Source of the DNA: Ruminococcus flavefaciens
GTDB taxonomy: Bacteria > Bacillota > Clostridia > Oscillospirales > Ruminococcaceae
Length of the DNA: 64,000 bases
Reading direction: 5' to 3'
NCBI GenBank assembly: GCA_902762855.1
Contig: CACWPR010000001.1
Coordinates: 7,656 to 71,655 of the forward strand
Numbering within the stretch: the stretch's first letter is position 1; every line of letters begins with the position of its first letter. The position numbers were made by a program, and so were the translations under genes. The notes below the pieces were generated by a model, which saw nothing but the letters and a program-made list of their open reading frames with translations, was not told the origin of the DNA and ran no database searches. Shown in pieces: positions 39,255 through 63,902 of this stretch.

Positions 39255-39260
39255 CACACT
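39240..39260. repeat. Palindrome copy 3 (centre C)
   Basis: Supplies TGA stop of the upstream gene; followed by GGGAGG. Confidence 0.97.
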
Positions 39261-39290
39261 CAGGGAGGAAAGAATAATGGAGGACGAATA

Positions 39291-39494
39291 ATGTCTGAGC
39301 TGAAAACAAAACTTAAGGAATACCGTGCAAAGCACGATATGAAGCAGAGCGAACTTGCAGAACGTGTCGGTGTCCACAGAGAAACTATAACCCGGCTTGA
39401 AAAAGGACAGTATGCCCCCTCGCTTAAACTTGCAATGGATATTGCCGGAGTTTTCGGGGTTGCTGTTGAAGAACTTTTCTCTTTTGAGGACTGA
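39291..39494 (+). CDS. Xre/Cro-family HTH protein (67 aa)
   Basis: [32 protein letters not shown]. Confidence 0.88.
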
Positions 39495-39526: not shown

Positions 39527-39547
39527 AGTGTGTCATCGTGACACACT
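39527..39547. repeat. Palindrome copy 4 (variant ...TCAT-C-GTGA...)
   Basis: One substitution; followed by AAAGGA RBS. Confidence 0.93.
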
Positions 39548-39963: not shown

Positions 39964-40398
39964 ATGTTGAATTCAGTTACAATTATGGGCAGACTTACAG
40001 CTGATCCGGTATTACAGCAGACCACAAACGGTGTTCCGTACTGCAAGTTCATTCTTGCAAACGAGAGCGAATACTATCAGGAGGGCAAAGAAAGACCGGT
40101 CAACTTCGTGATTATGAACGCTTGGAGAAGCACAGCAGAGTTTATCTGCCGTAACTTCGTAAAGGGCAAGCTGATGATCGTTGAAGGTTCGCTCAGAGTT
40201 GCATCATACGTTAAGAATGACGAGAGAAGATTTATATCCAATGTTGAGGTCGGCAGAGCTTACTTTGCCGGGGACAAAAAGGCAGCTGCTCCTGACAATT
40301 CTGCTATCGAGGAAGAGCAGACCTTGAACAAGGCTATCGAGGAATTCAGCCTTGAAGAATATGAGGAAATCCTCTCAGGCGAGGATCTTCCGTTCTGA
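39964..40398 (+). CDS. ssb: Single-stranded DNA-binding protein
   Basis: MLNSVTIMGRLTADP OB fold; acidic tail EDLPF; AAGGAG RBS. Confidence 0.93.
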   Translation: MLNSVTIMGRLTADPVLQQTTNGVPYCKFILANESEYYQEGKERPVNFVIMNAWRSTAEFICRNFVKGKLMIVEGSLRVASYVKNDERRFISNVEVGRAYFAGDKKAAAPDNSAIEEEQTLNKAIEEFSLEEYEEILSGEDLPF

Positions 40399-40418
40399 GT
40401 GTGTCACCGTGACACACT
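40398..40418. repeat. Palindrome copy 5 (centre C)
   Basis: First base overlaps the ssb TGA. Confidence 0.97.
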
Positions 40419-40624: not shown

Positions 40625-41416
40625 ATGGCAATTAAAACAAAAATCATCTCAATATGCTCTGAAAAGGGCGGTGTAGGCAAGACAACAACCACAATAAACC
40701 TTGCCGGAGGACTTGCAAAGAGAGGTAAGGAAGTGCTTATCCTCGACCTCGATCAGCAGCAGAACGCTTCACACGCTCTTGGATACGTCAAGGACGGACG
40801 TCCGACTACAGCGGAGCTGATCTATAACACAGTGGCAGGAATCCCGATAGACTATGCAGAGGCTATCAGGACTTGCGGAAATGGTGTTGACTACATTCCT
40901 TCATCGCCTATGCTTACAAACATAACCGGCACGATAGCAAACGACACAGAGAACGACAGTAATTTTGTTCTCAGGAGACTCCTTTTTAATGAAGTCTTTG
41001 CCGAATACGACTACATACTTCTTGACTGCCGGACGATACTCGACCTCCTGATAAGCAATGCCCTTAACGCAAGCGACTACGTTATCATCCCGGTTGACCT
41101 CGGTATATACGCATACAACGGACTTGATAAAATGCTTGATAAGGTTGCCTCGATAAACAATACAACAAACCGCAGCCTGAGAGTATTGGGAGTACTGCTT
41201 AACAAGTTGCAGCTTACCAATGTCAAGACATCTCTTGCAGAATCTATCCGCAGCGAGTATAGTGAGCTTACATTCAAGGCAAGTATTCCATACTGCCCGG
41301 CTCAGACAGAGCTTGCAGTTCTGAATCAGACAAGCTCCGTATTTGATGAACGCAGTTCCCTCGGTACTGCATTTATGAACCTGACAGATGAGGTCATAAG
41401 CATTGTGGAGGAATAA
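40625..41416 (+). CDS. parA: ParA/Soj family ATPase
   Basis: Deviant Walker A KGGVGKTTT, LDLDQQ, YDYILLDC; GGGAGG RBS before ATG 40625. Confidence 0.92.
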   Translation: MAIKTKIISICSEKGGVGKTTTTINLAGGLAKRGKEVLILDLDQQQNASHALGYVKDGRPTTAELIYNTVAGIPIDYAEAIRTCGNGVDYIPSSPMLTNITGTIANDTENDSNFVLRRLLFNEVFAEYDYILLDCRTILDLLISNALNASDYVIIPVDLGIYAYNGLDKMLDKVASINNTTNRSLRVLGVLLNKLQLTNVKTSLAESIRSEYSELTFKASIPYCPAQTELAVLNQTSSVFDERSSLGTAFMNLTDEVISIVEE

Positions 41417-41437
41417 AATGTGTCACCGTGACACACT
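41417..41437. repeat. Palindrome copy 7 (variant AATGTG..., centre C)
   Basis: Directly after the parA TAA. Confidence 0.93.
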
Positions 41438-42109: not shown

Positions 42110-42130
42110 AGTGTGTCACCGTGACACACT
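42110..42130. repeat. Palindrome copy 8 (centre C)
   Basis: Directly after TAA 42107-42109. Confidence 0.97.
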
Positions 42131-42257: not shown

Positions 42258-42698
42258 ATGGTATTTGTAAAAGTATTATATGCAGTTGCAATGATAATCT
42301 TCACTTACCGTCTACTGAATCGCAAGCGATGTACTGATCCCGAAGGAAATATAGAATTTATTTCAGTTTCTGAGGCAATTGAGGAAATGAACCGGACTAA
42401 GGAACAGCTTTCTTCAATTGAAGAAATGATAACCGACATAACGATTTGTTCCCCGGACGATCATAACAAGTACATCAGATGTGAGTGGGCAAACACTTTA
42501 GGTGAGTGTTTCAAGTATGATCTCTTCATTGACGGTAATGGAACAGTGTCAGATGAACTGCTCAGAATTGCTTATGCAGAGAGGTCAAGACTGCGTACCC
42601 TACTCCGTCAGCAGATCAGAAATCTTAATGACCGGTGTAACGAAAACTGTAACGAAAACTATGCGTTTTCATCGGGGGAGGGGTTAGATGATAAGTGA
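42258..42698 (+). CDS. Hypothetical protein
   Basis: GGAGG RBS; 146 aa. Confidence 0.65.
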   Translation: MVFVKVLYAVAMIIFTYRLLNRKRCTDPEGNIEFISVSEAIEEMNRTKEQLSSIEEMITDITICSPDDHNKYIRCEWANTLGECFKYDLFIDGNGTVSDELLRIAYAERSRLRTLLRQQIRNLNDRCNENCNENYAFSSGEGLDDK

Positions 42699-42996
42699 TA
42701 TTAAGTATTGTAAACGCTGCGGAGCAATGATCTCAGACATTAACAATACAGACTGGTACAGGCATATGAGCGTGAAATACTGTGAGATATGCCGCAAGGA
42801 ATCTGACCGGGAGAAAACAGCACTCCGGGTATATAATCTACGTCAGCGAAAGAAAGCAAAAGATAAACTCCGGGATGAGAAACTTGTCCTTATGGAGGAA
42901 AGGAATGAGCTGCTTGCAGAGGAGAACGTACTGCTCCGTCAGAGGTTAGTGCAGCTCCGGGAAAAGGTTCTTAGTAATGAGAGTGTGTCACGGTGA
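42688..42996 (+). CDS. CxxC/CxxC zinc-finger plus coiled-coil protein ending inside copy 9
   Basis: CKRC...CEIC; C-terminal SVSR* from the palindrome. Confidence 0.7.
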   Translation: MISDIKYCKRCGAMISDINNTDWYRHMSVKYCEICRKESDREKTALRVYNLRQRKKAKDKLRDEKLVLMEERNELLAEENVLLRQRLVQLREKVLSNESVSR

Positions 42997-43002
42997 CACA
43001 CT
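42982..43002. repeat. Palindrome copy 9 (centre G)
   Basis: Supplies TGA; followed by GGGAGG. Confidence 0.97.
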
Positions 43003-43988: not shown

Positions 43989-44009
43989 AGTGTGTCACCG
44001 TGACACACT
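43989..44009. repeat. Palindrome copy 10 (centre C)
   Basis: Between TAATAA and the AGGAGG RBS of parB. Confidence 0.97.
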
Positions 44010-44021
44010 CAGGAGGAGAGT

Positions 44022-44960
44022 ATGGCAAAGATTGATTTTACAGCAATGAAAAACAGCCGTAAAGCTGCCGAAGATCAGATCGAGGATAATATCCCGGCAG
44101 AGCTTGAAGAAAGCTATACAAGCGTATGGGGCAGCAATAAAGAGAACATCATCTACATAGATACAACTCGTCTTATTCCTTTTGTAGACAAATACGGCAA
44201 TTCGCAGCCATTCAAGCTGAATGAAAAGAAAGTCAGCCAGATAGATGCAAGTGCAAAGGATATTGGCATAGTCACTCCGCTGACAGTCAGAGCTAAAGGA
44301 GATCTCTATGAGATAATCGCCGGACATCACAGACTTGCAGCTGCACAGCAGATAGGTCAGCTCAAAGTTCCTTGTATAGTCCGCAAGTACACAGACGAAG
44401 AAATGTACACAGTACTTGCTGAGAGTAACATCCAGAGGGACAGGACGCTGCCGAGCGAATACGGCAGAATCTTCGCCCGGTATATGGAAATCAGGGAGAG
44501 CGAGGACTTGACAGCTGAGGAAATAGCTGCGAAGTTCGATATATCAAAGAAAACGATGTACAGATATATCAATGTCAATTCTCTTATCTCTGAGCTTCAG
44601 GATATGACTGACAACAAGATCATAAATATCGGTGCCGTTGATACTATATCGCAGCTTTCTGAGGACGAGCAGACAGCTCTTGCAGCTGTTCTTGATGAAG
44701 AAAAGGTCATATTCTCAGTTGCAATGGCAAAGCAGCTCAGAACACTCTCAGATAACGCTGAGGGCGAACTAACAGAAGAAGATATAAGAACACTATTTGA
44801 GCATAAAAAAGCTGCACATAAGTCTGTGCAGCGATCAATAAGCGATTCTGTTGTGAATCGATACTTTATGCCCGATGCTTCTGACAAGGAAGTAGAGGAC
44901 ACCATAGCTAAAGCTCTTGAACTGTATTTCAATCAGTCTCACCGGAACGCAGACAATTGA
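44022..44960 (+). CDS. parB: ParB/Spo0J family protein
   Basis: PLTVR, YEIIAGHHRLAAA (GxxR box), ESNIQR, HTH TAEEIAAKFDISKKTMYRYI. Confidence 0.9.
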   Translation: MAKIDFTAMKNSRKAAEDQIEDNIPAELEESYTSVWGSNKENIIYIDTTRLIPFVDKYGNSQPFKLNEKKVSQIDASAKDIGIVTPLTVRAKGDLYEIIAGHHRLAAAQQIGQLKVPCIVRKYTDEEMYTVLAESNIQRDRTLPSEYGRIFARYMEIRESEDLTAEEIAAKFDISKKTMYRYINVNSLISELQDMTDNKIINIGAVDTISQLSEDEQTALAAVLDEEKVIFSVAMAKQLRTLSDNAEGELTEEDIRTLFEHKKAAHKSVQRSISDSVVNRYFMPDASDKEVEDTIAKALELYFNQSHRNADN

Positions 44961-45384: not shown

Positions 45385-46443
45385 ATGAATATCAGACACT
45401 TATCAGCACTTATAACAGCCATTGCCTTATCCGCCTCCTTTACGAGCTGCGGTGATAAGGATGATAGAAGCAGCTCAAAATCAAATGTTGTCGAGGCTAA
45501 GAATATCGAACCAAGCACGGTTGAAACAAGCAAAGACATTGAATCCACAACAGTAGACGATGTGATCCAGAAAGCTCTTGAGGAACAGGCAAACCGGGAA
45601 CACGACGGATATTACCTTATTGACTATGTTACTGTGAATTTCAAAGGATATGAACACGATTCAGAAGTTGAGGCAGTTGTCGATTGGGAGAGGCTTGCAA
45701 CCGATCTTGGCAATGATATAACTCCTGATTTTCTGGAACAGGTTTATCATATAAGTGTCCTGAATACAAAAGAAAATTCACTCGATCACGCCAAAGTTGA
45801 TGATCTTATCAATGGCGAGGAAGTTAATATTCATCTAAGCGAAAGGTCATTGCAGTCCTCATTCAAACAAAAGTACAGCAAAGAGCTTCAATTCTTAGAC
45901 GAGAACATCTGGGGTGATAATGACAATTATGCTGTTGTATCCGGACTTAAAACAAAAGTATTCCTTGAAAATGCAGCTGACGTTGACCCAAAGGCTGTAA
46001 ATGAGCTCTTTGAAGAAACAATGAGTACTATCAAGGAGTCTACTCAAAACTATACTGATACATTGCTTAATAATGGAAGTTCAGTAGATATAGATTTTGT
46101 TCTCGGCAGGAACAGCAAAATAACTGATGAAACCAGAAAGTGTAAAATCAATGATTATAAGGTCGAAAAAACATATTTGGCTACCAGAACAGCAGCAAGC
46201 TATAATGATGTAGCTGCAAGCGGTCTGCCGGGTAATATGATATTTAATATATACAAGCTGACAGCAGAACGCTATGGCAGCGGTGAGATATTTGAAATGT
46301 ACTATCGCACCGAGGTCGGAAATGTTTTATTTGAGGACGATAAAATGCTCATTGGCGATGAAGAAGTTAAAGTACAGTTTGCCGGATCAGCTGATGAACT
46401 TATGCCTGATAACAAGTACTGGGAAATTTCAGAAGTAAAGTAA
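45385..46443 (+). CDS. Lipoprotein of unknown function
   Basis: Lipobox-like FTSC; own TTGACA-17-TATAAT promoter at 45307-45335. Confidence 0.75.
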   Translation: MNIRHLSALITAIALSASFTSCGDKDDRSSSKSNVVEAKNIEPSTVETSKDIESTTVDDVIQKALEEQANREHDGYYLIDYVTVNFKGYEHDSEVEAVVDWERLATDLGNDITPDFLEQVYHISVLNTKENSLDHAKVDDLINGEEVNIHLSERSLQSSFKQKYSKELQFLDENIWGDNDNYAVVSGLKTKVFLENAADVDPKAVNELFEETMSTIKESTQNYTDTLLNNGSSVDIDFVLGRNSKITDETRKCKINDYKVEKTYLATRTAASYNDVAASGLPGNMIFNIYKLTAERYGSGEIFEMYYRTEVGNVLFEDDKMLIGDEEVKVQFAGSADELMPDNKYWEISEVK

Positions 46444-46463
46444 GTGTGTCACCGTGACACACT
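46443..46463. repeat. Palindrome copy 11 (centre C)
   Basis: Overlaps TAA; followed by AGGAGG. Confidence 0.97.
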
Positions 46464-46894: not shown

Positions 46895-47650
46895 TTAGTG
46901 TGTTATATCATCTTTGCTCTTATCATTATGCTGTTGCATAGGTTTTTCCGCAGCTTTTTCAGCAAAGGCTTTTTGTGTGGCTCTGGAGAAACTAAACTTG
47001 TAATTATTTATGAGTAAATTACTTTGTTGTTTTAATTCAGCAGAAAGTTTGGAAAAAACCGATTGTGGAATATCAGATAAGCTCTTTCCTTTTTCGATAT
47101 ATAAAACATCAGTATATATCGGTATGTCATTAGCTCTTGCCAGAATATGGGTTATAGAATAAACATTTGCACTCCTATCAAAGCAATCCTCATCTCTTAA
47201 GGATTCGACAGTAAAATATGCATCTGATTTTATGCCAGTTGGATTTTGTTTATTAAAGCAAAGAGTGAAATTCAAATCAGTTGAGCCGAATTTGTATGTT
47301 TGAGTTGATGTTGTTATGTCTTCAAGTAAGAAAGATTCTGAGGTGGCAAGATTAGAAATATTATTTATATGTTGGATTTTTCTTTTTGATAATTGAAACG
47401 GATGCTGAGCTGAAAAGAAAATCTGAGTTCCTTGCAGCTTACCATCAACGGCGAGTTTGTAGAAGCTCTTGGCAGACAGGTTACTTTCTACACCTGTTAA
47501 ATGTTTGAAGTTGGAGGTTTTGAACATTACCTCTATGTATCTGCCATCAAAGACATAGAGGAAGGTTTTTCCAACAAGTTTTTTCTTATATTGCTTGGCT
47601 GCAATGCAGATTTGTTTTGCAGCTTGCTTTCTGTCATTTAATTTACTCAT
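46895..47650 (-). CDS. PBECR4-like (BECR-fold) predicted ribonuclease
   Basis: YKKKLVGKTFLYV...IEVMFKTSNFKHLTG...FYKLA pattern recalled for PBECR4; charged C-terminal tail. Confidence 0.7.
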   Translation of the reverse strand: MSKLNDRKQAAKQICIAAKQYKKKLVGKTFLYVFDGRYIEVMFKTSNFKHLTGVESNLSAKSFYKLAVDGKLQGTQIFFSAQHPFQLSKRKIQHINNISNLATSESFLLEDITTSTQTYKFGSTDLNFTLCFNKQNPTGIKSDAYFTVESLRDEDCFDRSANVYSITHILARANDIPIYTDVLYIEKGKSLSDIPQSVFSKLSAELKQQSNLLINNYKFSFSRATQKAFAEKAAEKPMQQHNDKSKDDITH

Positions 47651-47994: not shown

Positions 47995-48015
47995 AGTGTG
48001 TCACCGTGACACACT
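47995..48015. repeat. Palindrome copy 12 (centre C on +)
   Basis: Overlaps the TAA of the - strand gene at 48015-48017. Confidence 0.97.
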
Positions 48016-48455
48016 TAATAATAATTTTTCGTAGCTTGTCTAATCATAAGGAAGGTATCCTTATTTTCAGGCTTAATATTCAGTCCGTCAAAGCTCTCAT
48101 TATGTGAATAGTAGTAATTACTTAAAGCCTCAGTCAAAGCCATTTCATCGGTGTTTTCAAAGTCACTAAGCATATCATTTATAGTCTGCTCAAATGTTGT
48201 ACAACATACGTTATCAGAGATAAAATAATCAATATCATCATAAGAATCAACAATGTTATAATTGATGTTATTATATGAGCCCTTTTGTATAGAGTAAACA
48301 TCTATTATTGCTTCATCAAAGAAACCAGAAAACATTTCAAGGTATTCCAAAGCAGAAACACCACAAAGAATTACATCATTTGTCATAACATTTTGCAGCC
48401 ATAGACGAGTTGAGATAAAATCCTTACGAGTTTTCGTCATCATATTATACTTCAT
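48015..48455 (-). CDS. Hypothetical protein, AbiEi-antitoxin-like (tentative)
   Basis: ILCGVSALEYL...TTFEQTINDML pattern; family call from recollection only. Confidence 0.5.
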   Translation of the reverse strand: MKYNMMTKTRKDFISTRLWLQNVMTNDVILCGVSALEYLEMFSGFFDEAIIDVYSIQKGSYNNINYNIVDSYDDIDYFISDNVCCTTFEQTINDMLSDFENTDEMALTEALSNYYYSHNESFDGLNIKPENKDTFLMIRQATKNYY

Positions 48456-50405: not shown

Positions 50406-50501
50406 ATATCATCACAGCTTTCTCTGTTTTCTATTAACTTAATGCGTAAAATATAACATTATAGTAAGTATAACATAGATGTTTATATTTTGCAATAAAA
50501 A

Positions 50502-50522
50502 AGTGTGTCACGGTGACACACT
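50502..50522. repeat. Palindrome copy 13 (centre G on +)
   Basis: 10 nt after the HEPN stop; 6 nt upstream of a - strand -35 box (50490-50495). Confidence 0.97.
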
Positions 50523-50532
50523 CTTTTATATA

Positions 50533-50940
50533 TTAGTTAATCTCATCGATTTCAGCAAGTTTAGCCTGTAATGTGCATTCAAGACTTATAAATGTGGGAA
50601 TAAAGCTGTCTTTTATGAGTAGCAGCATCTCGTCTATTTCATCCTCACTATAAATGTGGACAGAAGTATTTCTTTTTTTCAGCATAACGAGCCATACCTC
50701 TGCATTAGCTATAAATCCGCATTTATAGCCGAGTTGAAGGATTTCACGAGGAGAGCCTGTTTCTGCATTTTCTACACCGTGAAGCCTCAGAACAGCCTGT
50801 AAAGCCTTCCAAGCAAGTTCAAATGTTAAATTGAATTGACCGATAACACCGGTTCGGTAGATCTCATTCTGGTCAGCCATTTCAAAATCTGCGTTTTTGA
50901 GTATCTTCAAGCAGTTAGAAAAATTTTCAACTTTTTTCAT
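50533..50940 (-). CDS. HEPN toxin (HI0074-like nucleotidyltransferase substrate-binding family)
   Basis: GQFNLTFELAWK, SPREILQLG, Rx4H motif RNTSVH; start may be 50940 or 50970. Confidence 0.88.
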   Translation of the reverse strand: MKKVENFSNCLKILKNADFEMADQNEIYRTGVIGQFNLTFELAWKALQAVLRLHGVENAETGSPREILQLGYKCGFIANAEVWLVMLKKRNTSVHIYSEDEIDEMLLLIKDSFIPTFISLECTLQAKLAEIDEIN

Positions 50941-51217
50941 ATAGCAATATACCGTCCCTCTCAATTTCATCTTGTAGCTCTTGACTTATACCTTTATCGA
51001 GATCAACAACATCAAACATCAGGAGAGTGTGAGAATTATCTTTTATATCGTAGTAAAAATCAAGATAATTACCACCGCTTACAGCAATATCAATGTCACT
51101 TCTCTCAGAATTCGTTTTTCTCGCACGGGAGCCGAAAAGGATAACTTTTTGTATGCCGTGCTTTTCAGAGAATTTAATTATATCTCTGACCACTCTTTCA
51201 GGAAGATCATAATCCAT
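50927..51217 (-). CDS. Minimal nucleotidyltransferase (MNT) antitoxin
   Basis: LFGSRARKTNSERSDIDIAV (GSx10DxD); promoter TTGCAA-17-TATAAT at 51266-51294. Confidence 0.9.
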   Translation of the reverse strand: MDYDLPERVVRDIIKFSEKHGIQKVILFGSRARKTNSERSDIDIAVSGGNYLDFYYDIKDNSHTLLMFDVVDLDKGISQELQDEIERDGILLYEKS

Positions 51218-51310
51218 ATATAACACCTACTCCCAATAGTATTACACCCACACTAAACTGTAATAATTATAACACAACTGTTTAAGATTTGCAATAGAAA
51301 ATCGAGATAT

Positions 51311-51331
51311 AGTGTGTCACGGTGACACACT
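51311..51331. repeat. Palindrome copy 14 (centre G on +)
   Basis: Supplies the TGA stop of the resolvase gene; last copy seen. Confidence 0.97.
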
Positions 51332-51940
51332 TTTCTCATACTGCTTAACAAGGTTATAAAACGTAGTCTTTTTCAGTCCTAAAAGCTCCATAGCCTGAAC
51401 TGCTGTTATTGAGCCTGACTTCCATTCATTATAGGTATTCTGCCAGTTTTCAGGAAAATCCGCTTTAGGTCTGCCAAGATACTTACCCGAAGCCTTTGCT
51501 GCTTCAATGCCTTGTCGCTGCCTGTTTTTGATGTTCTCACGCTCTTTTTCGGCAGTATAGCTCAAAATCTGGAGAACGAGGTCAACAATAAAGTGCTTGT
51601 CAAGACTATCGCTGCTCTTGCTTGTATCGAGCAAAGGCATATCGAGAACTTTAATATCAGCTTCAAGATTATATGTTATATGCTGCCATTGATCCCTTAT
51701 TTCCTTATAATTTCTGCCGAGCCTGTCCAGAGAAGTGATTATAAGCATATCTCCTGAGTGCAGCATAGGAGCAGTCTCAGCTGTCCCTACAAGGGTATTA
51801 TAGCCTTTACGATTAAAGTCCTTTCCACTTGCCTTATCAGTGATTATGTACCTATCATCCGAAATATACTCACGCAGCATTCGCAGCTGCCGGTCAAGAT
51901 TCTGGTCGGAACTCGATACTCTTGCATATCCGTATTTCAT
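51317..51940 (-). CDS. Serine recombinase, resolvase/invertase family with C-terminal HTH
   Basis: YGYARVSSSDQNLDRQ, SLDRLGRN, RQRQGIEAAKASGKYLGRP, LGLKKTTFY. Confidence 0.94.
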   Translation of the reverse strand: MKYGYARVSSSDQNLDRQLRMLREYISDDRYIITDKASGKDFNRKGYNTLVGTAETAPMLHSGDMLIITSLDRLGRNYKEIRDQWQHITYNLEADIKVLDMPLLDTSKSSDSLDKHFIVDLVLQILSYTAEKERENIKNRQRQGIEAAKASGKYLGRPKADFPENWQNTYNEWKSGSITAVQAMELLGLKKTTFYNLVKQYEKSVSP

Positions 51941-52059
51941 AACTACTCCTTTCCGAAATAATGTGTTGTTGACTTACAATTGAATAATAGTTTATTTTCT
52001 ATATTACAGATTTTTAAAATATTGACATTTATTATAAAATTGTATATAATAATAAAGAG

Positions 52060-52536
52060 GTGATTACTATGAATTATACTGATATTATCAATAATTTAAA
52101 AAACAATATTCAAGCCAAAAATGTCGCTCCGGCTGATTTTGGAGCTTTTGAAAATATTTACGGAGGTACTTCTGAATTATCTAAGGATGCACTAAAAAAC
52201 GGTTATGAAATATTAGATAAGTGTTTGATAGTTCTATCTCATTGTAAATATAAAGAAAGCATCGATAGCGTCTGTAACTATAAGGGTTATTACACTGAGA
52301 ACAGTGATAATGATGAAAGATTTAAAATATATAATGAATACTTTAAAAAGGGTAATTGTGACTTAATTATTGTTATAAATCTGATGAAAGAATTACTAAG
52401 TAAACGTGTTGACCTCAACTCATATTTATGGCGTATTCCATTAACCTGTCTTGCAAATGATGTCGAATTAATTAACAAAGATTTTTTCAATGAATTCATA
52501 CTTCCTGAATTAACTCTTTTCTTTAAAGAATTATAA
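52060..52536 (+). CDS. AT-rich hypothetical cargo protein with its own promoter and terminator
   Basis: TTGACA-17-TATAAT at 52022-52050; hairpin GCCTGCAATTTT...AAAATTGCAGGC after the stop. Confidence 0.7.
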   Translation: MITMNYTDIINNLKNNIQAKNVAPADFGAFENIYGGTSELSKDALKNGYEILDKCLIVLSHCKYKESIDSVCNYKGYYTENSDNDERFKIYNEYFKKGNCDLIIVINLMKELLSKRVDLNSYLWRIPLTCLANDVELINKDFFNEFILPELTLFFKEL

Positions 52537-52616: not shown

Positions 52617-55600
52617 TTATAACTCTTCTTTCTCCTGAGAGCTATCTGGGATGCTGCTCTTAGCCTTTTCAGCATAATCACGCTGTATACTGCGAGAAAA
52701 CAATGGCTTTTCCTGAACATTCTCCGCTGTTTGTTTGTCACTTTCTTTAGCATCTTTATCAGTAACTTTCTCCGGAGGTTGTAATTCGATCTCGATCTGA
52801 GCCAACCGTTCCATTTTATCGTGCAGTTCCGCTGCTTGTGGGAACGGCTTGTTCATTTCGATCTCGCCCTCAGCGATCAAAGTCTTTAGTTCCGCTTCTC
52901 TTGCGATGAGGTTATCCAAGCTTTGCGGAAGTCCTGATATAGCATTCTCTATTCTTGTAATATTACCGCCCGGAGAAGTACCAAGATTGATACGATAAGG
53001 CTGATTCTCACGTTTCAGCTCTGCTACATACTGCTGCTGCCACGAATTGAAGGATATACTTACCTTGAAGCCCTTGTATTCAGCCAAAGTCTCCATTTTC
53101 TCAGCATTAGGAGTACATTTGTCTCTCATTGCATAAAGTAAAGCTTCACCGGCTTTCTCACGCTCAGAATAGGTCACACCGCCGATCTTTATATCCAGTA
53201 TCTTCTTTCCGTCCTCATTGAGCCTATCCGGAACGCCTTCAAGGTATTTGATGTCCTCCTTTATATACCCGATACGCTTAGTTGTAGCTTCAAGCTCAAC
53301 AGGATACTTCTTCAGAACATTGTCTTGCAGCTGATAATGCTGATTGTCATAGCTCGACTTTATCATTTTTAGCTCTGCGATCTCATTTTCAAGTGTCATT
53401 TTCTCCTTGATAAGCGGATTTCCGGCACATAGAGCCTTTACCTCTGAGTAAGAAAGTGCATTTGCATCCACATCGGCACAGTTTCTTGCCGGAGACTTTG
53501 AAGTCATAATCTGACCGATAAACTTCTGCTTGTTCTCCAAAGTCTGGAACAAATATGAATCGAAAGTTTTCTCAGTAACATAGCGGAAAAGATGAACTTC
53601 CTTGTTCTCATTGCCTTGTCTTACCATTCTTCCACGTCGCTGCTCCATATCTGCCGGACGCCAAGGTGCATCCAGATCGTGAGAAGCTACAAGCTTTGTC
53701 TGTACGTTTGTACCGCATCCCATTTTCGCAGTCGATCCTATAAGAACCCTTATGTCACCACGGCGAACTTTTGCGAACATTTCAGCTTTCGCAGTTTCGT
53801 TCTTTGCTTCGTGAATAAATGCTATTTCTTCTCTCGGAACTCCCTTTGCAACGAGCTTTTCACGAATATCGTCATAGATCGAGATTTTTCCGACTTCCTC
53901 GATAGCATCATCATTGACCTTTTCTTCGTCCTCCGCATCTTTCTTTACAGGATCACCTTTGATATTAGGAACACCCATATCGCAGAATATAAGCTGTGTC
54001 GAACGATCTTCCTTTGTTTCATTCCAGATATTGAATACATTCTCGACACAAAGATTGACTTTTGTTCCCGGTTCATCAGGCAGAAGGGGATTTATAAGTC
54101 TCTGATCCAGTCCGCATTTGCGTCCGTCATTGGTAACACAGAGCATATTGTCCACGCTGCTGTCAACGCTGCCACTCTGAATCTTGTCTGCACGTTCAGC
54201 AAGTGAAGCTACTATATCAGTCTGAATTTTGGTAGGCTTTGCAACAATTGTCTGTGTTTCACACTCCGGTACATCGAGGTTGAGCTGATCGGAAGTCTTA
54301 ATATCTGCAACTTCCTTGAATAACGACATAAGCTCCGGTATATTATTGAACTTCGCAAAACGTGTTTTCATTCGGTAATCGTTACCGGCAGGACGTACCT
54401 CATAAGCTGATACAGTTTCACCGAAGTTTGCTGCCCAACAATCGAAGTGCTTCAAGCCAAGCTCTTCAAGGCGGTCACTCTGGAGATACTTTTGCATAGT
54501 ATATATCTCCGTCATTGAGTTTGCAACAGGTGTGCCGGTTGCAAAAGTAGTACCACGATTACCGGTTATCTCATCGAGGTAACGGCATTTAGCGTATAGA
54601 TCCGGAGTTTTCTTAGTGTTCTGATTCGTAGAAATGCCCGAAACATTGGTCATTTTCGTAGTCAGGAACAAATTTTTGAACTCGTGAGCCTCGTCAACGA
54701 ACATCTTGTCAATGCCGAGCTGCTCAAACGTAACGACATCGTCCTGATTTTCATTTTGAAGCTTTTCAAGCTTAGTTTCAAGGTTCTTTACAGCCTTTTC
54801 CATTTGCTTAACGGTAAACTTAGCTCCGTCCTGATCTTGCATTTCCTCAATACCGTTTCGGAGATCGTCTATCTGTTCCTGAATAGTTTTCTGCTGCCTT
54901 TCTATGGATACCGGTATCTTTGTTATCTGAGAATGACCGATAATAACAGCATCAAAATTGCCGGTAGCTATCTTAGCACACAGCTTCTGGCGATTTTCCT
55001 TAGTAAAATCGTTCTTTGTTGCGACCAGAATATTCGCATTAGGATAGAGCCTTAAAAAGTCCTGTCCCATCTGCTCTGTCAGGTGATTCGGAACTACCAT
55101 AAGCGACTTATGATGAAGTCCAAGACGTTTTCCTTCCATAGCAGTCGCTATCATTTCAAAGGTCTTGCCAGCACCTACTTCGTGAGCAAACAGCGTATTA
55201 CCGCCGTATAGAGCGTGTGCAATAGCATTCTTCTGATGATCTTTAAGAGTGATTTCCGGATTCATACCTGGGAAGGAAAGGTGCGAACCGTCATATTCAC
55301 GAGGTTTTGTGCTGTTGAAAAGAACATTATATCGCTCAACTAAGAACTCTCTGCGTTCCGGATCTTTAAATACCCATTCCTTGAAAGCTTCTTTTATAGC
55401 TCTCTGCTTCTGCCTTGCAGCAGCAGTTGCCTTATCATCGAGGACGTTCTTCTCTTTTCCCTCATCAGTCTCTATTTTCTTTGTGACCTTTGTATCTCTG
55501 AGGTTAAGTGCATCCTCAAGGAGCTGATAACCATTACGCTTTTCTGTTCCATATGTAGTAGTTACTGTAACATTATACTTATCAGCCGACTTGTTTGTAA

Positions 55601-58600
55601 TGCTCCAAGTTGCTGTCGCACCGCTGTATTTGACCTCTATCGAAGCTCCACGCCACTTGTGTTCATATGGCTGCAACGTTCTCGGAGTTTTGAATGTCTC
55701 GACCATAAACTGCTGAATATAGTCTATCGGAATCCAAGTAGCACCAAGCCGTATATCTATATCACCGGCAGTAAGCTTTTCCGGCATAGCAGCTTTCAGA
55801 GCTTCAACATTCGATGAATAAATAATATCATTCTCGGCAGCAGCCTCCGCAGCAGCAAGCTTGTTCCTGATGTTGCCGGAAAGGTACTCGTCAGCCATTT
55901 CATATTTCGGATTACCCTCGCTGTCGATCCTCTCAGGATTAGGATAGATAACACGGTGAAGGTCAGAAATCAGCTTGTTACGGTCAAATCCGGTAAGGCT
56001 CTGCATATAGTCCAAGTCAACTGTTGCTCTTTCAGAAATGGAGATAGCAAGAGCTTCCTGAGATGTAGAAACGTGAGTTATCTCAACTTTAGGTCTTACT
56101 GTTCTCTTTGAGAATATATCAGCTTTTCCGACTACCTGTCCATTCTCCACCTTTTCAAGAGATTGAAGCAGCGGTGACGATATATCGTCCTTGAAAGCCT
56201 TTATATTTGCCTTATCGTTGAGATTACCGAACTTCGCAACGAACTTATCATACTTAGCTGTGAGCTTATCCTGTGCAGCCTGAACCTGAACATCTGAGCC
56301 ACCATTGAGCTGAATATCCAGTACATCACGAACGGCAGCGTTTATCTCAGTCATACCGTAGATACGCTTATAGCTACCGGAATTCTTAACCGGGAGAAGA
56401 TTTTCGTTGTTACGATAATAAAGCTGATTATCCTTGATAACATAGCTGAAATTCTTTTCATCTTCTGCCGGGAGGACTGTGAGCTTTTCGGGAGCTGAAA
56501 CTGTTATGTCAGATTTTTCAGCTCTTTCGACAGGCTTTATCTCGCAGCTGATGTTCTGTAATGCTTTCCGCAGCTCTGTTCTGAGGTCTTGCCCCTCAAC
56601 CGGTACACACATAGTATCTTTATTGCCGTAGAGCTTGTTGCCCTCAACGATCTTACCGATAATCATTTCCGGATGATCTTCAAAATATTTGTTGATCTGT
56701 AAACCGTCTGCTGTGTGACCGAGCTTTGTCCACTCCGGTTCAGCTCCGATAACCGGTTCTTCACGCTTCTGGAGGAAAAGAATATCAGATGTTACCTCAG
56801 TACCGGCAAGGGACTTGAAAGCATTGTTAGGAAGTCTGACAGCTCCGACAAGCTCTGCACGTTCCGCAAGATATTTGCGGACTGTATCACTCTGCTTATC
56901 GAGCGTACCCTTTGATGTTACAAAAGCAACGACACCGCCGGGACGAACCTTATCGAGCGTTTTAGCGAAGAAGTAGTCGTGTATCTTGAAATGGTGCTTA
57001 TCATAGCGTGAATCAGCTACCATAATATCACCGAAAGGTACATTTCCGACAGCTATATCGAACTTATTATCGCTGAATAAGGTCTTTTCATAGCCTTTGA
57101 CCTTAATATCCGCACTCTGATAGAGCTGCTTTGAGATTCTACCGGAAATGCTGTCAAGCTCAACACCTGTGAGCTGAGAATTGTTTCGCATATCCTCCGG
57201 CATAAGTCCGAAGAAGTTACCGACACCCATAGCCGGTTCAAGAACGTTACCGCCCTTGAATCCCATATTTCCGAGAGCTGCATACATTTCCTCGATGATT
57301 ACCGGAGAAGTATAGAAAGATGTAGTAGTTGAAGCTCTTGCAGCGTTATACTCGTCATTGTTGAGCAGCAGCCTGAGATCGCTGTATTCTTTCCTCCACG
57401 AATCATTTGTGGCATCGAAAGCCTGAGAAAGACCGCCCCAACCTACATACTTAGCGAGGATAGCCTGTTCTTCAGGTGTAGCTATCCTGTTTTCTTCCTC
57501 AATAGTTTTGAGCGTTCTTATAGCAGCCACATTGTTGCGGAACTTCTCCTTTGCACCGCCACTCTGAATATCACTGGTAATACGGAAATCAAGTTTTTCA
57601 GGCTTTTCTGCTTCATTTGTTTCAATAGTAACAGCATTTGCCACCGGTTCAGCTGTAACAGCATCTTCCATAGCTTCAAACAGCGATAACTGACTGAATT
57701 CCGGCTGCTCAACTTCATTTCCGGCTTTCTCAATGAGAGTATAATCGAGCTTTTCTTTCCAATGACCTATATGTGACATACAGGACATAATGTCATTCTT
57801 ATCGGTATTTGTGAGGTATATAGCGAAATCTCCGTCTATTTTATCGACTTTCCATTGCTTGCCCTCAGTTTCGATAATATCACCGACAGAAAGCTCCTGA
57901 ATTGTTGGTGCAGCCTTTTCTACCGACTGGATTTCCTCATATCTATCGGAAATCATATTTTCACTAATGCCAATATCGCCTTTGTATTCTGGTTTGGCAG
58001 TCGGAACAGGCTGCTCATTACTCCATTTTGTCATTCGTTCAGATTCAGGAACACTATTCTTAACTTCGTATTCATAAATGGACTTTACTTTATCACGATA
58101 TTCATTATTTCCTTTATCCTCAGCGGAAATCTGAATCTCTGAGCGTTCCTTGAAGAACTCAGGTAGTTCCTTGAAACCGAAGGAGTCCACATAATATGCT
58201 GTTTCCTTGCCTTTCTGATTCAGAACGATAACATCGCTGACGGAAAGTGAGTGTCCCCGGAAGTCAGTCGGATGATCTACATTGAATTTCTGATAGATAC
58301 CGTCAAGTTTATGCTGCTTGAACTCAATATCATCGAGATTACCGGAATAAACCTCATCATAGTCGGATATTACCGGGTTTATCTGGTGTTCATCGAGCCA
58401 GTCAGAACCTTCAAATTCAAACTGACGGTTGTATTCATTGTCTTTCAGCTGATATATCTTGTATGTTTCCTCTGGTGCAGCAGCTATTTCAATACCCTTT
58501 GAGCTTATATAGTCGGAAACAGCTCTTTCATCGCCGTTTACAGCTGTAATGCTGCCATTCTGATACTCGATTGAAATATCGTGAACATCGCCCTCAAAGG

Positions 58601-61600
58601 AGTGTTCTGCAATAGCTCTTGTAAGCGTGTGATCCTGTCTTTCAAGGTTTTTGAGCCAAGTATTCATAAAGCTATTGATCTCACGCTGCTGTAAAGGCTT
58701 ATCCTCACAAACCTGATATACACCCATATCAGACTGCTCATATGATACCGCAGCTGCGGTCTGGTTTTCGTGATCTATACGCAGCACTATATCCGGATCG
58801 TACATCAGATCACCGTTAGAAATGTAGGTGTGCATAACTGAGAGCTTATCTTTATCTATCCATTCAAGGGATAACGGTTCGTATGTATCGCTTTCACGCT
58901 TCTCATAGTTGTGCTCTTTGTTCATTATATCCGGGAACTGCTTTACAAGAGCTGTATAATTCCTGTGTTCGATAGTGTTCGGGAACTTTTTCGGCTGTGC
59001 AGCTCTTTCGGCTATATCTTTTGATACAAATTCTCTTGCCTCATCAAGTGTTTCACAGAATTTGCCGTTTCCGCTGTAAGCAAAGTCTTTACCGTCAGTA
59101 CTTGTAAGAATCTGAACATTATACTTATACTGTTCATCGCTATTCTCTCTGATGAGATACTTTGTGTTGCTGTCAGCTCCGGCAATCTCTTCCCGGAAAG
59201 GCTCTTTGTAAAGCTCCTGAGTATCAATGAAGTGAAAACTCATAAGCAGCTCTTTATTATCCAGTCGGGAAGTATAGGTATTATTCTCGAATGTCCAGTT
59301 TGAAGCCTTGTCCCACTCCATATGAATATCTTTACCGGAAAGCTGTCCGTTCTCATCGAGCTTCTGCGATGTGAAACCTACTGTATTCACAGAAGTAACT
59401 ACTCTGCGTTCGCCTACGCATTCTGTACGATGATGTTCATCTATCTCAAATGTCATTCCGGGTTTTATCGCTGCTTTGAGCTGAGAGAGATTCTTTATAA
59501 CCGGCAGCGTGTCTGCTAATTCTGGAGCAGACAGCTCTTTTTCCTGTGTTGCATTTCCGACATATTCATATAAGCTGCTCATAAGATTGTTATACGATAC
59601 ATTTTCAGTGATCTCAAAAGCTCCGCTCATACGCTTTACAGTATAATCGTCAGTATAGTAAGGTAAAGCTCCGGACAGTGATACTACCTCTGAAATAACA
59701 CCTGTTGCCTTATTCTTGAATTTGTCGCCAATCTCTATCTTATACGGCTCAGAGTATTCTTCTGGAGAGCGTTCAGCCTTTATTTTCTGCCATTCTGTCT
59801 GCTGTTCAGAAGATAAATATGTATTGTTGCTCAAACTGTATTCTGCGGCAGTTGCAGTTTCTTCCCAAGAAAAAGCATATTTTTCTCCATTTTCAAATGA
59901 AAACGTTACTCCTTTGCTGTCAAAACTTACAAGTGAGATATTACCGTCCCCGGTATGACCTCCGGTTCCGTATTCTTTTTTCATAAAATCAGCTAATTCG
60001 TTAGTTGTTGGATGATTTGGCTGACTTCGGCTTTTCTCATAGAATTCCTGAATACGGAGCTTTCCGTTTTCAAAAGCTGTACCTTTTATTACTTCATCTA
60101 CCAATGCTGCATATACCTGAACGCCGTCTACAATCGGACCTTTAGCGAAACCGCTTTCAGGACTGCTTGTTTCACCGGATTCAGGTTCAGATATATCATC
60201 AAGCACCAATGCAGGCTGTTCCGCAGCCTTTTCTTCCTCTATTCTTACGTCATACTTCATATATGCTATCGAAGCAAAGGCTTTTTCCGTCTGTTCCTCA
60301 TTATTGAGAATACCGTTCAGAGCTTGCTTGATACGGTTTGTTTTGATCTGATCGTTCTCCCAATCGTGCATAACAGCACCGTCAAAGGCAGCTATCAGCT
60401 CTTTTGCTGTATCTTCTGAAAGCTCCGGCAGCTCATCGTGAAGATCCTGTACTGTTCTTCCGAATACAATATCATTGTATTCTCCCTCAATGAGCGACAG
60501 ATAACCTTCGCCCATAGCTTCATAAGTCACTTCACGTTCAGCATTGCCGTATTTTGCTGTAAACGATTCCTCACCGTATTCGATAATAAATTCGTCCCAG
60601 TTGGAGTTTCTGAATGTTTTCTGGTTGCCGAGCATAGCCAGAGCGAGGTCTTTGCGTATATCCTCACCGCTATTCATACGGCGAGAGAGGTCAAATAATG
60701 CAGTTTCGGGAAGATTATTGCCAAATTTGATTTTTTCACCGGGGTTGTGCTTATCAGTATAGCCTTTTTCAAAGAGAACATATCCCATATCCTCGATTTC
60801 GTCCCACGCAAGATCTGCTTTTGCCATAAACTTAACTATATCTCCGGTAAGGAAGGACATTTCCTTATCAGTATATTCAGGTTCAACTTCTTCCTGTGCT
60901 ATTTCATCGACACGCTGAAATCTATCGATGACTTCACGCAGCTCGTCATCGGCAGCATTATCCTTGTTATTGAAATCTTCATCAGGTTTGAAGAACTCTC
61001 TCGCATCATAGTCAAAGCTATCATTTGTGCTATTAATACCGTAACTAAAACAGTTTGATAAGATATATTCTCTGAAATTCTCGCTGTTAAGAGCCTTTTC
61101 AAGCTGTTTTTCGTACACATTATAGTATTCAAGCTGCTGCTTTTCCTGAGAATAACGAGTAAGTGTTACGCTTTTATCTTCATAATTGACATAGTATTTT
61201 TCCATATCCTGACCTGAAAGTCTTTTCGCAAGTCCCTCACGCTCGATAGCTTTGTATGTGAAGTTGTTTTCAAGTTTATTGAGCAGTTCCAGAGCTTGCT
61301 TAGAATCGGATAAAACATTGTCGTTTCCTTCTCTTTCAGCATCATTTCTCGCTGCTTCAAAGTAATTACGGAGATTGAGAGTATATCCGCTGCGGAGATC
61401 ATCGAGAGCATTGATGTATGCGTTCTGACCGGTATTGAAGTCAATCCAGTCAAATTCCATATACATCTTACTTATGCTATAATCCTCATCAACGTCCAGA
61501 TTTTCGATGATATTACAAATATCGTCATACATCTGCTGAACTTCGATGTCCTTCGGAGCTGCCTTGTACACAGTATTACTGTCGAACCAAGCATATTTAC

Positions 61601-63902
61601 TATCAGAATCAGCTGTATCACGGCTTATGAGCTGATTATCGCTGTCATAAACAGAAAAACCGCTTTCCCATATATCAATAGCCTTGTCCTCATCAATTGA
61701 TGTATCAATTGAAACAGGATAGCTGCTTTTCAGAATAGAATAAGCCTTTTCTACAATGTGATCCTCGTCAAGCTCTTTCAGGAGCAGCTTTTTGACTTCG
61801 GCTTCATTGCGTATAATATCATCATCAACAATGGCATTGCTTGCAAATACCGATACAACCTTGTTTGCATACTCATTGTTTATCCAGAGTGCATCTTGCA
61901 GCTCCGGCACAAGTCTTTCATCAACCCAGAAAAAAGCCTTTTCCTGACTTTCTATTGTTTCTGAATGAACATCGCTACGTTCAGAAGAATCCTGTTCGAT
62001 TGTAGGAGCATCTTCTTCAATTCTTATTCCGGCTTTTTGCAGTTCTTCATCCTCGATAGAAACAAGTTCATCAAAGTTAAGGTTACTAAGAGCGAGCCTT
62101 GTCATTTCAGCGAGGTTCTCATACTGTTCCTCTTTTACAACAACTGAATTGATAGTAGTAATAAGAGCTGCCTTATCGAGATCAGCATTGACCTGAATCT
62201 CATACTCCTGTCCGTATATCTCATCGGTAGTATATGCCAGACCAAAAATGTTTTCAGAGCTTGGTAAATGCGTATCGTCACCATATTCCTTTATGTAAAA
62301 GTCGGATATAGCATTAAGTGCAGCTCTTTTATCTTCGTGCAGCTGGGCGAATTCGACTGCTTCTTTGAAGTTATTATTGATTATAAGGTCAGTAAACTTG
62401 TCGATTTCATCGGCAGAGAAAGTGCTGTCTATCGCTGCAATAGAAGAAACATCAAATCCATTGCTGATAGCTGCGAGAATCCTATCTTGCTGTTCGCTGC
62501 TGAATCCTTTTTCATTCAGGCTGATACTAATATCATACCTTGTTTTCAGATCTTCGATACCCTTTAACGCTGCTGCATACTCAGGAGAGAAGATATCTGT
62601 GATCTTCTTCAACTCAATAGCTTTCGCAGCAAGCTCAGAGAGCTGTTCATTGCTGTACTTTGGTTCAAGGTGAGTATCTATGCTGATATAGTCAAGGGTA
62701 GCTGCTTCTGCTGTATAGTGCCTTAAAGAGGCTATCTGCTCATCAGAAAAACCTTTTTCGGCAAGAGCTGAATCTATGAGATAGATGTTTCGTGCGACAT
62801 TCATATACTTCTCAAAGTTCGCAGTATCCTTTGCCGATACAGTAAATGTCACCATTCCGTCCTTTATCTGACCGGAGTAGTGTATTCCGAGATCATCTAT
62901 TGTTGACTTGATATACTTGTTATACAGTTCCTCAGAAATAATACCGTTATAGAATATCTTATCTTCAATATCCCTATATGCTGTATTTCCGATGATATTC
63001 AGCTGTAAATTATCTCGTTCCTGATCGTTTCCTCCGCTGCCAGACGGTAATTGTTCCTCAGACCTGTCATTTTCATAAGATTCCCGGCTTTCTCCGCTGC
63101 CTTGTACTCTGTGTCTGCTGCCATCATTGCCTGTTCTGCTTTCTGGAGCTGCTCCTGACTCTGTTCTTCCACTTCCTGAAGGTGCTGAAACAATATTCTG
63201 CTGTTCAGCATTTCTTTCAGGACTTCCTGTTGTTCTTCCGCCAGATATTTCAGACGCATCTGTGCGAACCGTCCTATCTCCGGAGAGAGCTGCTGCTTGC
63301 CTGTTATCGTGTTCAGCTCTGCTATCCTGTAACTCTCGTTGATCTTCACTATGCTGTACTTCATTATCCTTTTCACTCCTTTTAGCTATAAGTTCATAGA
63401 ATGTGTGCTTTCTTGCGTGAATGATCTCTTTTTCGATCTCTACAACTCTATTGTAGTTTTTACCGCTTACTGTAATTACAGCTTTTCTCGGACCGTAAAC
63501 ACAGCCTGAGAACTGTATGCCCTCACGTTCAAGCTCCTGTGCTACTCTCAGAGCTACGTCAGCTCCGGAAGTGTGATACTTTTTATCCGGAATATACCTA
63601 TATTCAGCATTTCCGATGATATTCTTATCCGGGGGAGAATATGGTTTAGCAAGCTCAGATGCTTTCAGGACGTTCATCATATCCTCTCCGAGAATAGCTT
63701 CAAGTTTTTCTGTATCTTTTGTGTTTACGCATATTCTCGCTGCTGTCTTACCTTTAGCATTAACGGTAAAAGCGTAATAATTGATACCGGATAATTCAAG
63801 TTTTTCCGCAGCTTCTTGCATAAGAGCTTCTGACATTGTGTAAGCTGTCTTATCCTTATTATCGACTGCTGAAAACCATATTTCATTTCCGACAGTATTC
63901 AA
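52617..63902 (-). CDS. Giant (3761 aa) DarB-like adenine methyltransferase/SF2 helicase with YodL-like and other accessory domains
   Basis: [11 protein letters not shown] and GNVPFG (MTase); [13 protein letters not shown] (helicase); [12 protein letters not shown] (YodL-like); TTG start with AAGGAGG RBS. Confidence 0.85.
62999..63364 (-). CDS. tnpV: TnpV-like protein nested in an alternative frame of the giant gene
   Basis: [20 protein letters not shown]...[12 protein letters not shown] matches the recalled TnpV pattern; AGGAG RBS upstream. Confidence 0.62.

Follow-up and report, generated by a model that had tools for sequence, protein, structure and literature searches.

We analysed a stretch of 64,000 nt (hereafter the window) of Ruminococcus flavefaciens, taken from assembly GCA_902762855.1, contig CACWPR010000001.1 (the 87.8-kb contig C1, of which the window covers positions 7656-71655). 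We focus on a 21-bp palindrome repeated between the genes of a conjugative element, named E0, and on the gene cassettes that it delimits in E0 and in related elements, of which E1 is the closest. Near 34-35 kb of the window the G+C content drops from ~50% to ~40%, the last host genes (encoding a P-type ATPase, a GH16-dockerin protein and a GNAT protein) stop at 35174, and the first genes past this boundary encode a NikA/MobC-like protein and a MobA/VirD2 relaxase. Downstream of the relaxase genes lies a long plus-strand operon that includes the genes for SSB, ParA, a Lar-like protein and ParB. E0 also contains a minus-strand block with a PBECR4 nuclease, an MNT-HEPN toxin-antitoxin (TA) pair and a resolvase, and a gene for a 3,761-aa methylase/SNF2 helicase, after which come topoisomerase III and type IV secretion system (T4SS) genes. 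Open reading frame (ORF) calls are crude.

The palindrome, AGTGTGTCAC[C/G]GTGACACACT, occurs 14 times in the window between 38646 and 51331 (11 exact copies and three with one mismatch; none in 100 shuffles). The whole 2.7-Mb assembly contains 18 copies, every one on C1, and a reversed-pattern control gave none. Copies 15-18 lie past the window end, at window-equivalent positions 68735, 70383, 70959 and 73344, among the topoisomerase and T4SS genes. Copies 1-11 accompany co-oriented units behind a promoter at 38597-38625, and copies 12-18 accompany units on the other strand that have their own promoters. The sites of the window and the genes and promoters that bear on them are as follows (RBS, ribosome-binding site; UTR, untranslated region; HTH, helix-turn-helix).

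38597-38625, plus strand: promoter of the long operon, TTGACA-17-TGnTATAAT (12/12 consensus match and TG extension)
38646-38666, unstranded: site copy 1, centre G, within the 5' UTR; the RBS cAGGGAGG and ATG come next
38957-38977, unstranded: site copy 2, centre C, with a stop codon before it and an RBS after it
39240-39260, unstranded: site copy 3, centre C; the 86-aa ORF upstream ends on its TGA (..KKSVSP*)
39527-39547, unstranded: site copy 4, variant C10->T (a loop/spacer position)
40398-40418, unstranded: site copy 5, whose first base completes the SSB stop codon
40575-40595, unstranded: site copy 6, upstream of the parA RBS
40625-41416, plus strand: ParA-type ATPase gene (PF13614, 4.7e-42; PF01656)
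41417-41437, unstranded: site copy 7, variant G2->A (an outer position)
42110-42130, unstranded: site copy 8, a motif match
42982-43002, unstranded: site copy 9; the ORF 42688-42996 ends on its TGA (..NESVSR*)
43989-44009, unstranded: site copy 10, its end 12 nt upstream of the parB ATG
44022-44960, plus strand: ParB-family gene, the candidate site binder (PF02195; N-terminal ParB fold and HTH, ..ISKKTMYRY..)
46443-46463, unstranded: site copy 11, a motif match
47995-48015, unstranded: site copy 12; the minus-strand gene 48015-48455 stops directly before it
50462-50501, minus strand: 40-nt promoter block, TTGCAA-17-TGtTATACT, fused to copy 13
50502-50522, unstranded: site copy 13, centre G; on the minus strand, a hairpin with U-tract followed by the next promoter
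50533-50970, minus strand: HEPN-type (nucleotidyltransferase substrate-binding) gene (PF08780, 2.5e-23)
50927-51226, minus strand: MNT nucleotidyltransferase gene (PF18765, PF01909)
51266-51294, minus strand: TA operon promoter, TTGCAA-17-TGtTATAAT, 16 nt from copy 14
51311-51331, unstranded: site copy 14, centre G, containing the stop codon of the resolvase gene
51317-51940, minus strand: small serine recombinase gene of the resolvase/invertase type, 207 aa (PF00239; ..EKSVSP*)

An earlier interpretation of this locus, made from the sequence alone (the sequence-only reading), described an integron-like cassette array. Its description of the layout was accurate in most respects: nothing but the MNT-HEPN operon with its promoter (HEPN, MNT and the TTGCAA-17-TATAAT promoter) lies between copies 13 and 14, the resolvase ORF stops on the TGA within copy 14, and intervals 1-2, 2-3, 3-4, 6-7 and 7-8 hold one gene each. 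It also placed a recombinase gene at the end of the array; given the four further copies on the same contig past the window, the resolvase is instead one cassette in mid-array.

In the plus-strand operon, the copies lie 0-3 nt past a stop codon (or overlap it) and 1-4 nt before an RBS (cAGGGAGG..ATG), and copy 1 stands ~13 nt downstream of the transcript start expected from the 38597-38625 promoter. Either strand of the site, translated from the first base, reads S-V-S-[P/R]-stop; this stop is used by three genes of the window and, in relatives, by parB genes and by a macro-domain gene of E1. In the minus-strand block, read in the sense of the genes, a copy is followed by TTTTTA and then by TTGCAA-17-TGTTATAMT, so that a hairpin with U-tract runs into a promoter. 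This composite is present at copy 13 and in loci L121, L133, L214 and E1; copy 14 has the promoter but not the T-run. The 50462-50501 promoter block moves with the site in the same three loci and E1, and would drive whichever gene is downstream. Over the 263 distinct site contexts from all loci (the metagenome loci being phylogenetically redundant), a T-tract is found on one strand in 32%, and an RBS with a start codon within ~25 nt on one side in 37%, compared with 4% of random positions. Site and neighbouring signals can also be repeated as one block: the 21 nt after copy 3 equal those after copy 9, which makes a 42-nt site-RBS block identical at both places. Past copy 3, this pasted block opens a four-codon ORF (MEDE*, window 39261-39293) whose stop overlaps the Xre ATG, a vestigial ORF and a scar left behind by the block.

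The exact 21-mer retrieves 43 stretches in species-representative genomes, nearly all of them metagenome-assembled genomes of Ruminococcus/Oscillospiraceae together with the isolate Hominimerdicola aceti, and it is also present in five contigs of a viral collection and in more than 120 metagenome contigs. Twelve other genomes have 1-24 copies each, and in the ten with matches listed all copies are on one or few contigs. The site is a perfect palindrome with arms of 10 bp and a dyad through a single central bp, its inner core being invariant and its outer bases variable. Positions 3-9 and 13-19 (TGTGTCA...TGACACA) hardly vary among 123 copies, with 8 substitutions in 1,722 bases and no compensatory change, and the remaining variation falls at positions 1, 2, 10-12, 20 and 21 (centre C in 64 copies, G in 55, A in 3 and T in 1). 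The ParB proteins of the same elements are down to 42-52% identity. This near-invariance in the absence of compensatory changes, despite the divergence of the proteins, indicates that the sequence itself is selected and not merely its ability to pair.

This bears directly on the idea that the palindromes are only RNA or DNA hairpins (intrinsic terminators or intercistronic mRNA stabilisers) with no specific binder, kept identical by concerted evolution. The sites do form stable folds (-11.7 to -18.5 kcal/mol; z -3.3 to -6.6), T-tracts follow about a third of them, the variation is located in the loop and at the stem ends, and copy 13 has the layout of a textbook bidirectional terminator: with its U-tract, it forms on the minus strand a 16-bp stem (dG -18.5) that is predicted to terminate the TA operon. 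The predominance of C centres in E0 (12 C, 6 G) and of G centres in E1 (14 G, 9 C) could likewise reflect conversion between copies within an element. Nevertheless, the U-tract is missing at most operon-internal copies, 14 stem positions remain nearly unsubstituted among elements whose proteins are about 45% identical, and neither the tandem arrays beside parB nor the one-base likeness to parS described below would be expected of a mere terminator. We consider an explanation by hairpins alone unlikely.

The parB gene is closely linked to the site. ParB loci were collected with an alignment query (a single-protein query gave none), and 10 of 12 genomes encode a ParB of the family on the contig that bears the sites. 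Among 14 translated loci, five have a parB whose reading frame enters a site and is closed by the TGA of that site, as also in elements E2, E3, E4 and E10 (..SVSR* or ..SVSP*, and ..SVSQ* once). In the window, copies 6 and 10 precede parA and parB, respectively. Two loci (L080:6-205 and L081:9690-9965) carry five to six tandem copies of TGTGTCAA[A/T]TTGACACA, spaced by 51-61 bp, directly upstream of parB; this is the classical layout of a plasmid centromere, whereas the E0 sites are dispersed. The 420-kb plasmid pRUMAL01 of R. albus 7 has three copies of a 16-bp variant, GTGTCACGCGTGACAC, within ~1 kb on the upstream side of parA-parB, where they flank an XRE gene and one abuts the parA RBS. 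Spacing variants in relatives are of 16 and 18 bp, compared with the 17-bp core of E0. In L086, the half-site TTGTCA occurs together with an altered recognition helix, ISSKTLYRY instead of [VIL]S[KR]KTMYRY. The ParB proteins of E2, E3 and E4 (613-645 aa) and of E10 (513 aa) have a Cys-rich N-terminal extension of ~200-330 aa with a radical-SAM-like motif, which E0 and E1 lack.

Against solved structures, the ParB profile is nearest to Noc and Spo0J/ParB (E 2e-20), and KorB is distant (E 1e-4). The host genome has five perfect copies of the canonical parS consensus, TGTTTCACGTGAAACA, within 3.6 kb on another contig (G000:C13:13158-16782), two of them 27 bp apart, presumably the chromosomal origin-proximal set. 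The half-site of the element, TGTGTCAC, differs from the parS half-site, TGTTTCAC, by one changed base, and the centre is one bp longer. E0 thus encodes both ParA and ParB and carries at its par operon sites that are parS-like yet distinct from the parS of its host.

Our preferred explanation, to which we give a probability of about 0.58, is that the palindrome is a private ParB site of the parS/KorB type that also acts as a terminator stem-loop, and that the modules between its copies are shuffled by short-homology recombination. The core TGTGTCA-N3-TGACACA would differ from canonical parS by one changed base in the half-site and by an added bp at the centre, and would be bound by the element's own ParB, which would load at the scattered sites and partition the element. 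By analogy with KorB on plasmid RK2 (PMC11790492), ParB may in addition silence neighbouring promoters or operon segments. Nearly all expression units have a copy at their 5' boundary, in some cases before an RBS in the long operon and in others before a T-run and a TTGCAA-17-TATAAT promoter, and the same palindrome would terminate the upstream unit wherever a U-tract follows.

Each part of this explanation has known counterparts. Systems of the ParB-parS/KorB-OB type are marked by specific binding of ParB to its site and by CTP-dependent clamping or spreading. OB sites, the operators of KorB, are scattered over RK2. In this IncP-1 plasmid, an OB oligonucleotide contains TTTAGCGGCTAAA, a short odd palindrome with a central G/C (PMC11790492). 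By analogy, E0 would share with the KorB/OB system a ParB-family protein of a conjugative element whose sites are dispersed near promoters besides a role in partition. It differs in that its ParB is nearer to Noc/Spo0J than to KorB, and in that 18-24 sites, placed in operons only a few bases from stop codons and RBSs, form predicted terminator stems and coincide with cassette joints; a KorA-like clamp-locking partner was not identified for the E0 ParB. The likeness to the ParB-parS and Noc-NBS systems (NBS, Noc-binding site) lies in the half-sites (TGTGTCAC-S-GTGACACA, one base off TGTTTCAC), in the nearest structures and in the overlap of the site with the 3' end of parB in many relatives. 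Unlike their chromosomal representatives, E0 has a 17-bp core with an extra central bp, and its sites are strictly intergenic and element-wide instead of clustered at the origin.

A third comparison is with stoperators, which occupy narrow spaces between genes, close to the gene ends, and probably halt transcription. Two papers on Cluster A mycobacteriophages (PMC9283540, PMC6550527) describe them as repressor sites that are spread through the genome and stop elongation. Dozens of identical short sites spread through a mobile genome are common to both systems, but stoperators are asymmetric 13-bp sites of a monomeric repressor with an orientation tied to transcription, whereas the E0 site is symmetric and linked to ParB.

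Other candidate readers encoded by E0 were considered and rejected. The small Xre HTH protein (39291-39494) is encoded in a variable cassette, and the family of the ribbon-helix-helix-like gene at 38215-38472 was found in E0-E2 only; neither can be the general binder of the site. The palindromes were also rejected as pseudo-oriT sites of the relaxase, as there is no palindrome-like sequence in the oriT region at 35.2-35.9 kb and no conserved nick-site flank after the copies.

A different role in transfer would be for the hairpins to function in the single-stranded DNA that passes between cells (priming, single-stranded promoters or protection), cassette changes then arising by template switching at hairpins. 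The palindromes would fold in single-stranded DNA, the array adjoins the relaxase genes, and SSB, the Lar-like restriction-alleviation gene and the giant methylase-helicase are typical content of a leading region. Nevertheless, a 9-10 bp stem is too short to provide -35 and -10 elements, sites are also found in T4SS operons far from the relaxase, and a variant of the site stands at the parAB operator position of the 420-kb plasmid, which makes this role highly improbable.

Gene maps of nine stretches from eight elements show a conserved backbone with variable units that are often bounded by sites. The sequence-only reading had taken the sites as crossover points for gaining, losing or inverting gene modules and had proposed a synteny comparison; in the relatives compared, gene order is not fixed and breakpoints fall on sites. 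Gain, loss and replacement are borne out by exact joints, but inversion is not, with no inversion junction at 421 palindromic sites, and the dedicated recombinase implied by the proposal is unsupported. At the TA cassette, in L121, a single site joins the left flank of copy 13 (the 40-nt promoter block) to the resolvase flank right of copy 14, with 0/35 mismatches to E0 on each side; missing are the 809-bp TA cassette and exactly one site. The resolvases of L121 and E0 are 94.5% identical, and L133 has the same empty joint. The tree of the resolvase gene, ((L004,L133),(E0,(L214,L121))), needs two TA-cassette events in any scenario; the cassette was likely lost in L121, and an earlier gain is possible. 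Chromosomal relatives of the MNT-HEPN pair (78% protein identity) have no sites, and the homology is restricted to the coding region.

Together with the absence of the TA cassette, about eight two-site events were found in the family. In L144, the left flank of copy 15 is joined to the right flank of copy 17 and 2.2 kb are gone; the interval from copy 15 to copy 16 holds another cassette, of 760 bp, in L125; E0 and E1 differ by a permutation of the gene-25 cassette; and four more two-site indels (266-932 bp) were found in other lineages. Whole blocks are also replaced: in the E1-like elements L216 (7209-8973) and L217 (7209-10060), a DUF6036 block and a block with ToxN and a KAP-NTPase, respectively, occupy the interval between the same two sites, with flanks 98.5% and 95.7% identical. 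This interval looks like a hot spot for defence and abortive-infection cargo.

Indels away from sites are common in the same relatives. In L135 and L192, a small additional gene has been inserted after copy 10, ahead of parB, and brings no second site, and gene 10 has no site at all in L186. The 155-aa gene at window 52069-52536, with a perfect consensus promoter at 52022-52050, is present in E0 and missing from L121 and L004, where ~30 bp separate the giant gene from the resolvase gene that follows it; neither end of this indel carries a site.

Such data could speak for a true integron-like system, in which the palindromes are crossover sites of the 207-aa resolvase, of a large serine integrase of the integrative and conjugative element or of an unrecognised enzyme, acting through single-site circles. 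Integron attC sites are imperfect palindromes of 57-141 bp, with conserved outer cores and a variable centre, that are recombined as folded single strands. E0 resembles an integron in its one-gene units with palindromic boundaries, in the strong promoter ahead of co-oriented promoterless genes (copies 1-11), in ORFs that end inside a site and in precise differences of one cassette and one site. Occupied and empty states are base-precise, and pairs of sites whose flanks are 96-98% identical enclose whole exchanged blocks. The site TGA is the stop of at least seven different genes (three in the window, parB in at least five relatives and the macro-domain gene of E1), which recalls some cassette ORFs that read into attC; the lack of sites in the chromosomal MNT-HEPN relatives suggests that sites are added on recruitment; and the ~30 bp upstream of the resolvase gene in L121 and L004 leave no room for a classical res site. 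Unlike an integron, however, E0 has no IntI and no attI, its site is a 21-bp perfect palindrome, many cassettes have their own promoter and opposite direction, and sites also occur in backbone operons, among the T4SS and topoisomerase genes, with as few as five in some elements.

The recombinases do not fit the integron-like system either. That no tyrosine recombinase is present in the window, as the sequence-only reading had remarked, extends to the whole of C1: a PF00589 search of the genome gave four matches, none on C1, and Pfam scans of most ORFs at 30-64 kb of the window found no tyrosine recombinase. The only recombinase on C1 is the 207-aa resolvase. With tblastn, its homologues were found in E0 and E1 only, at 31% identity and in differing cassette positions, and none in E2, E3, E4, E10 or E11. 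These five elements, with 5-13 sites each, carry the identical site, and the resolvase is therefore better seen as cargo than as a conserved partner of the site. A large serine integrase is encoded at the element end in E3 and, judging from family clustering, apparently in E4.

The geometry of the site points in the same direction. Crossover sites of serine resolvases and invertases (res site I, hix, gix) are even dyads, in which half-sites of ~12 bp flank an overlap of 2 bp at the centre. An odd palindrome cannot hold a dyad-symmetric 2-bp overlap, a poor fit that the sequence-only reading had itself pointed out. The single central bp and 10-bp arms of the E0 site are unlike this arrangement. 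On the grounds of both distribution and geometry, the resolvase was rejected as the enzyme of the site.

Nor does the central C/G act as the orientation mark that had been suggested. E0 and E1 have opposite centres at several junctions with the same neighbour genes, and the centre base follows no consistent gene direction; in sense-strand terms there are 68 G and 27 C (97 non-independent contexts), yet the disagreement of E0 and E1 led us to reject the mark. At two informative joints the centre base accompanies the variable side, whichever side that is, and this behaviour seems to indicate that there is no fixed crossover point. A centre restricted to C or G is what is expected from flipping of the palindrome or from a symmetric reader.

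Breaks in gene order were compared at high-scoring segment pairs (HSPs) of at least 88% identity, a test that replaced blastn block ends against relatives of ~75% identity, which were too noisy (11/37 near a site versus 25/88 ORF ends in these diverged relatives). Among HSPs of 88-99.8% identity, the ends near a site cluster at its far edge. Broken junctions amounted to 105/201 with a site and 356/709 without (odds ratio 1.08, p 0.63) or, under stricter rules, to 104/200 and 295/676 (odds ratio 1.40, p 0.04, not corrected for relatedness). An excess of only 1.08-1.40 speaks against a dedicated system, which predicts a far larger one. Fragments of the flanks are moreover duplicated along with sites: L214 has a 61-bp site-promoter block duplicated around an extra cassette, E1 has a 51-nt gene remnant with a site, and E4 carries the 76-nt 3' end of parB and a site copied, inverted, ~25 kb from parB. 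In the last case (JAMPAJ010000002.1, ~124022-124450, L055), two short ORFs end in the copied ParB tail (..LLTEYFESVSR), followed by the site. Co-duplicated flanks and the apparent lack of a fixed crossover are marks of short-homology or repeat-mediated recombination, whether homology-driven or illegitimate. With no tyrosine recombinase on the contig, a variable resolvase, no inversions and a break rate that is barely raised, a recombinase-driven, integron-like system appears distinctly unlikely.

Under the preferred explanation, by a ParB site and short-homology shuffling, blocks of 21-60 bp (a site, a site with RBS or a site with promoter) would be the only long identities between diverged co-resident elements. 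Since they are repeated at many junctions, co-resident or sister elements may exchange or delete DNA there, through short homology or repeats. Cassettes such as MNT-HEPN would in this way be lost, gained or replaced with base precision, as at the PeSL (promoter/stem-loop) cassettes of T4-type phages, of which neighbouring copies can form mini-circles by exchange. In two papers on these cassettes (PMC2839356, PMC4122927), a stem-loop terminator and a sigma-70-type promoter flank small accessory genes, and indels or replacements between close relatives are bounded by the cassettes and described as homology-driven, with no dedicated recombinase. E0 is alike in that a composite of terminator-like stem-loop and promoter is repeated between accessory genes and bounds the differences of relatives, albeit with weak enrichment. 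It is unlike PeSL in that its stem-loop is a near-invariant palindrome resembling a protein site and linked to ParB, in that many copies precede an RBS, and in being a conjugative element.

Several points weigh against the preferred explanation. ParB binding alone does not account for the closeness of the sites to both stop codons and RBSs. Covariation of helix and site is limited to one clear case, L086, and in R. albus 8 (L074) the spacing is altered although the helix is the same as in an element with the canonical site. A stretch of 21 bp is short for RecA-type exchange, and the tree with two TA events is compatible with insertion targeted to sites. Finally, two genomes, G011 with five sites and G012 with one, have no family ParB on the site contig. 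In the first of these, the five canonical sites of element E11 (G011:C109:45765-81992) occupy conserved backbone positions, but the whole contig lacks a family ParB. Loss of ParB from E11 or a second reader of its sites could explain this.

The ParB sites could also be an active cassette platform, at which bound ParB or stalled replication or transfer promotes the targeted insertion and excision of single-site cassettes. We regard this as improbable. If true, it would constitute an integron-like, tyrosine-recombinase-independent means of collecting TA, defence and anti-defence genes in conjugative elements of gut and rumen Firmicutes.

Sets of ParB operators are known, and so is PeSL-type shuffling; a single invariant site that combines the two on a Firmicute conjugative element appears to be undescribed in the literature searched. 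If the explanation by a private ParB site is true, one sequence has three jobs, as a ParB partition and operator site, as a terminator stem-loop heading expression units and as a joint for the exchange of accessory genes. The exchanged cargo would include MNT-HEPN, zeta toxin, ToxN, KAP NTPase, macro-domain and PBECR4 nuclease genes and the Lar-like restriction-alleviation gene, and the same explanation would account for a fixed backbone with turnover of defence and addiction cargo in Ruminococcus/Oscillospiraceae elements. TGTGTCA-N3-TGACACA would then be a simple marker to find such elements and to delimit their cassettes in metagenomes. A cassette-like layout with base-precise indels can arise without an integron integrase, which calls for caution when arrays are called integron-like from sequence only.

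Apart from the palindrome, a motif FSR-x2-Q-x(3-9)-E-[KR]-[AS] is shared by the C-termini of the PBECR4 nuclease (window 46895-47650), the giant helicase-methylase (52617-63902), the zeta toxin of E1 (13183-14184) and two more E0 proteins, products 21 and 23, whose genes lie on C1 past the window. This shared C-terminal motif may be a T4SS export signal.

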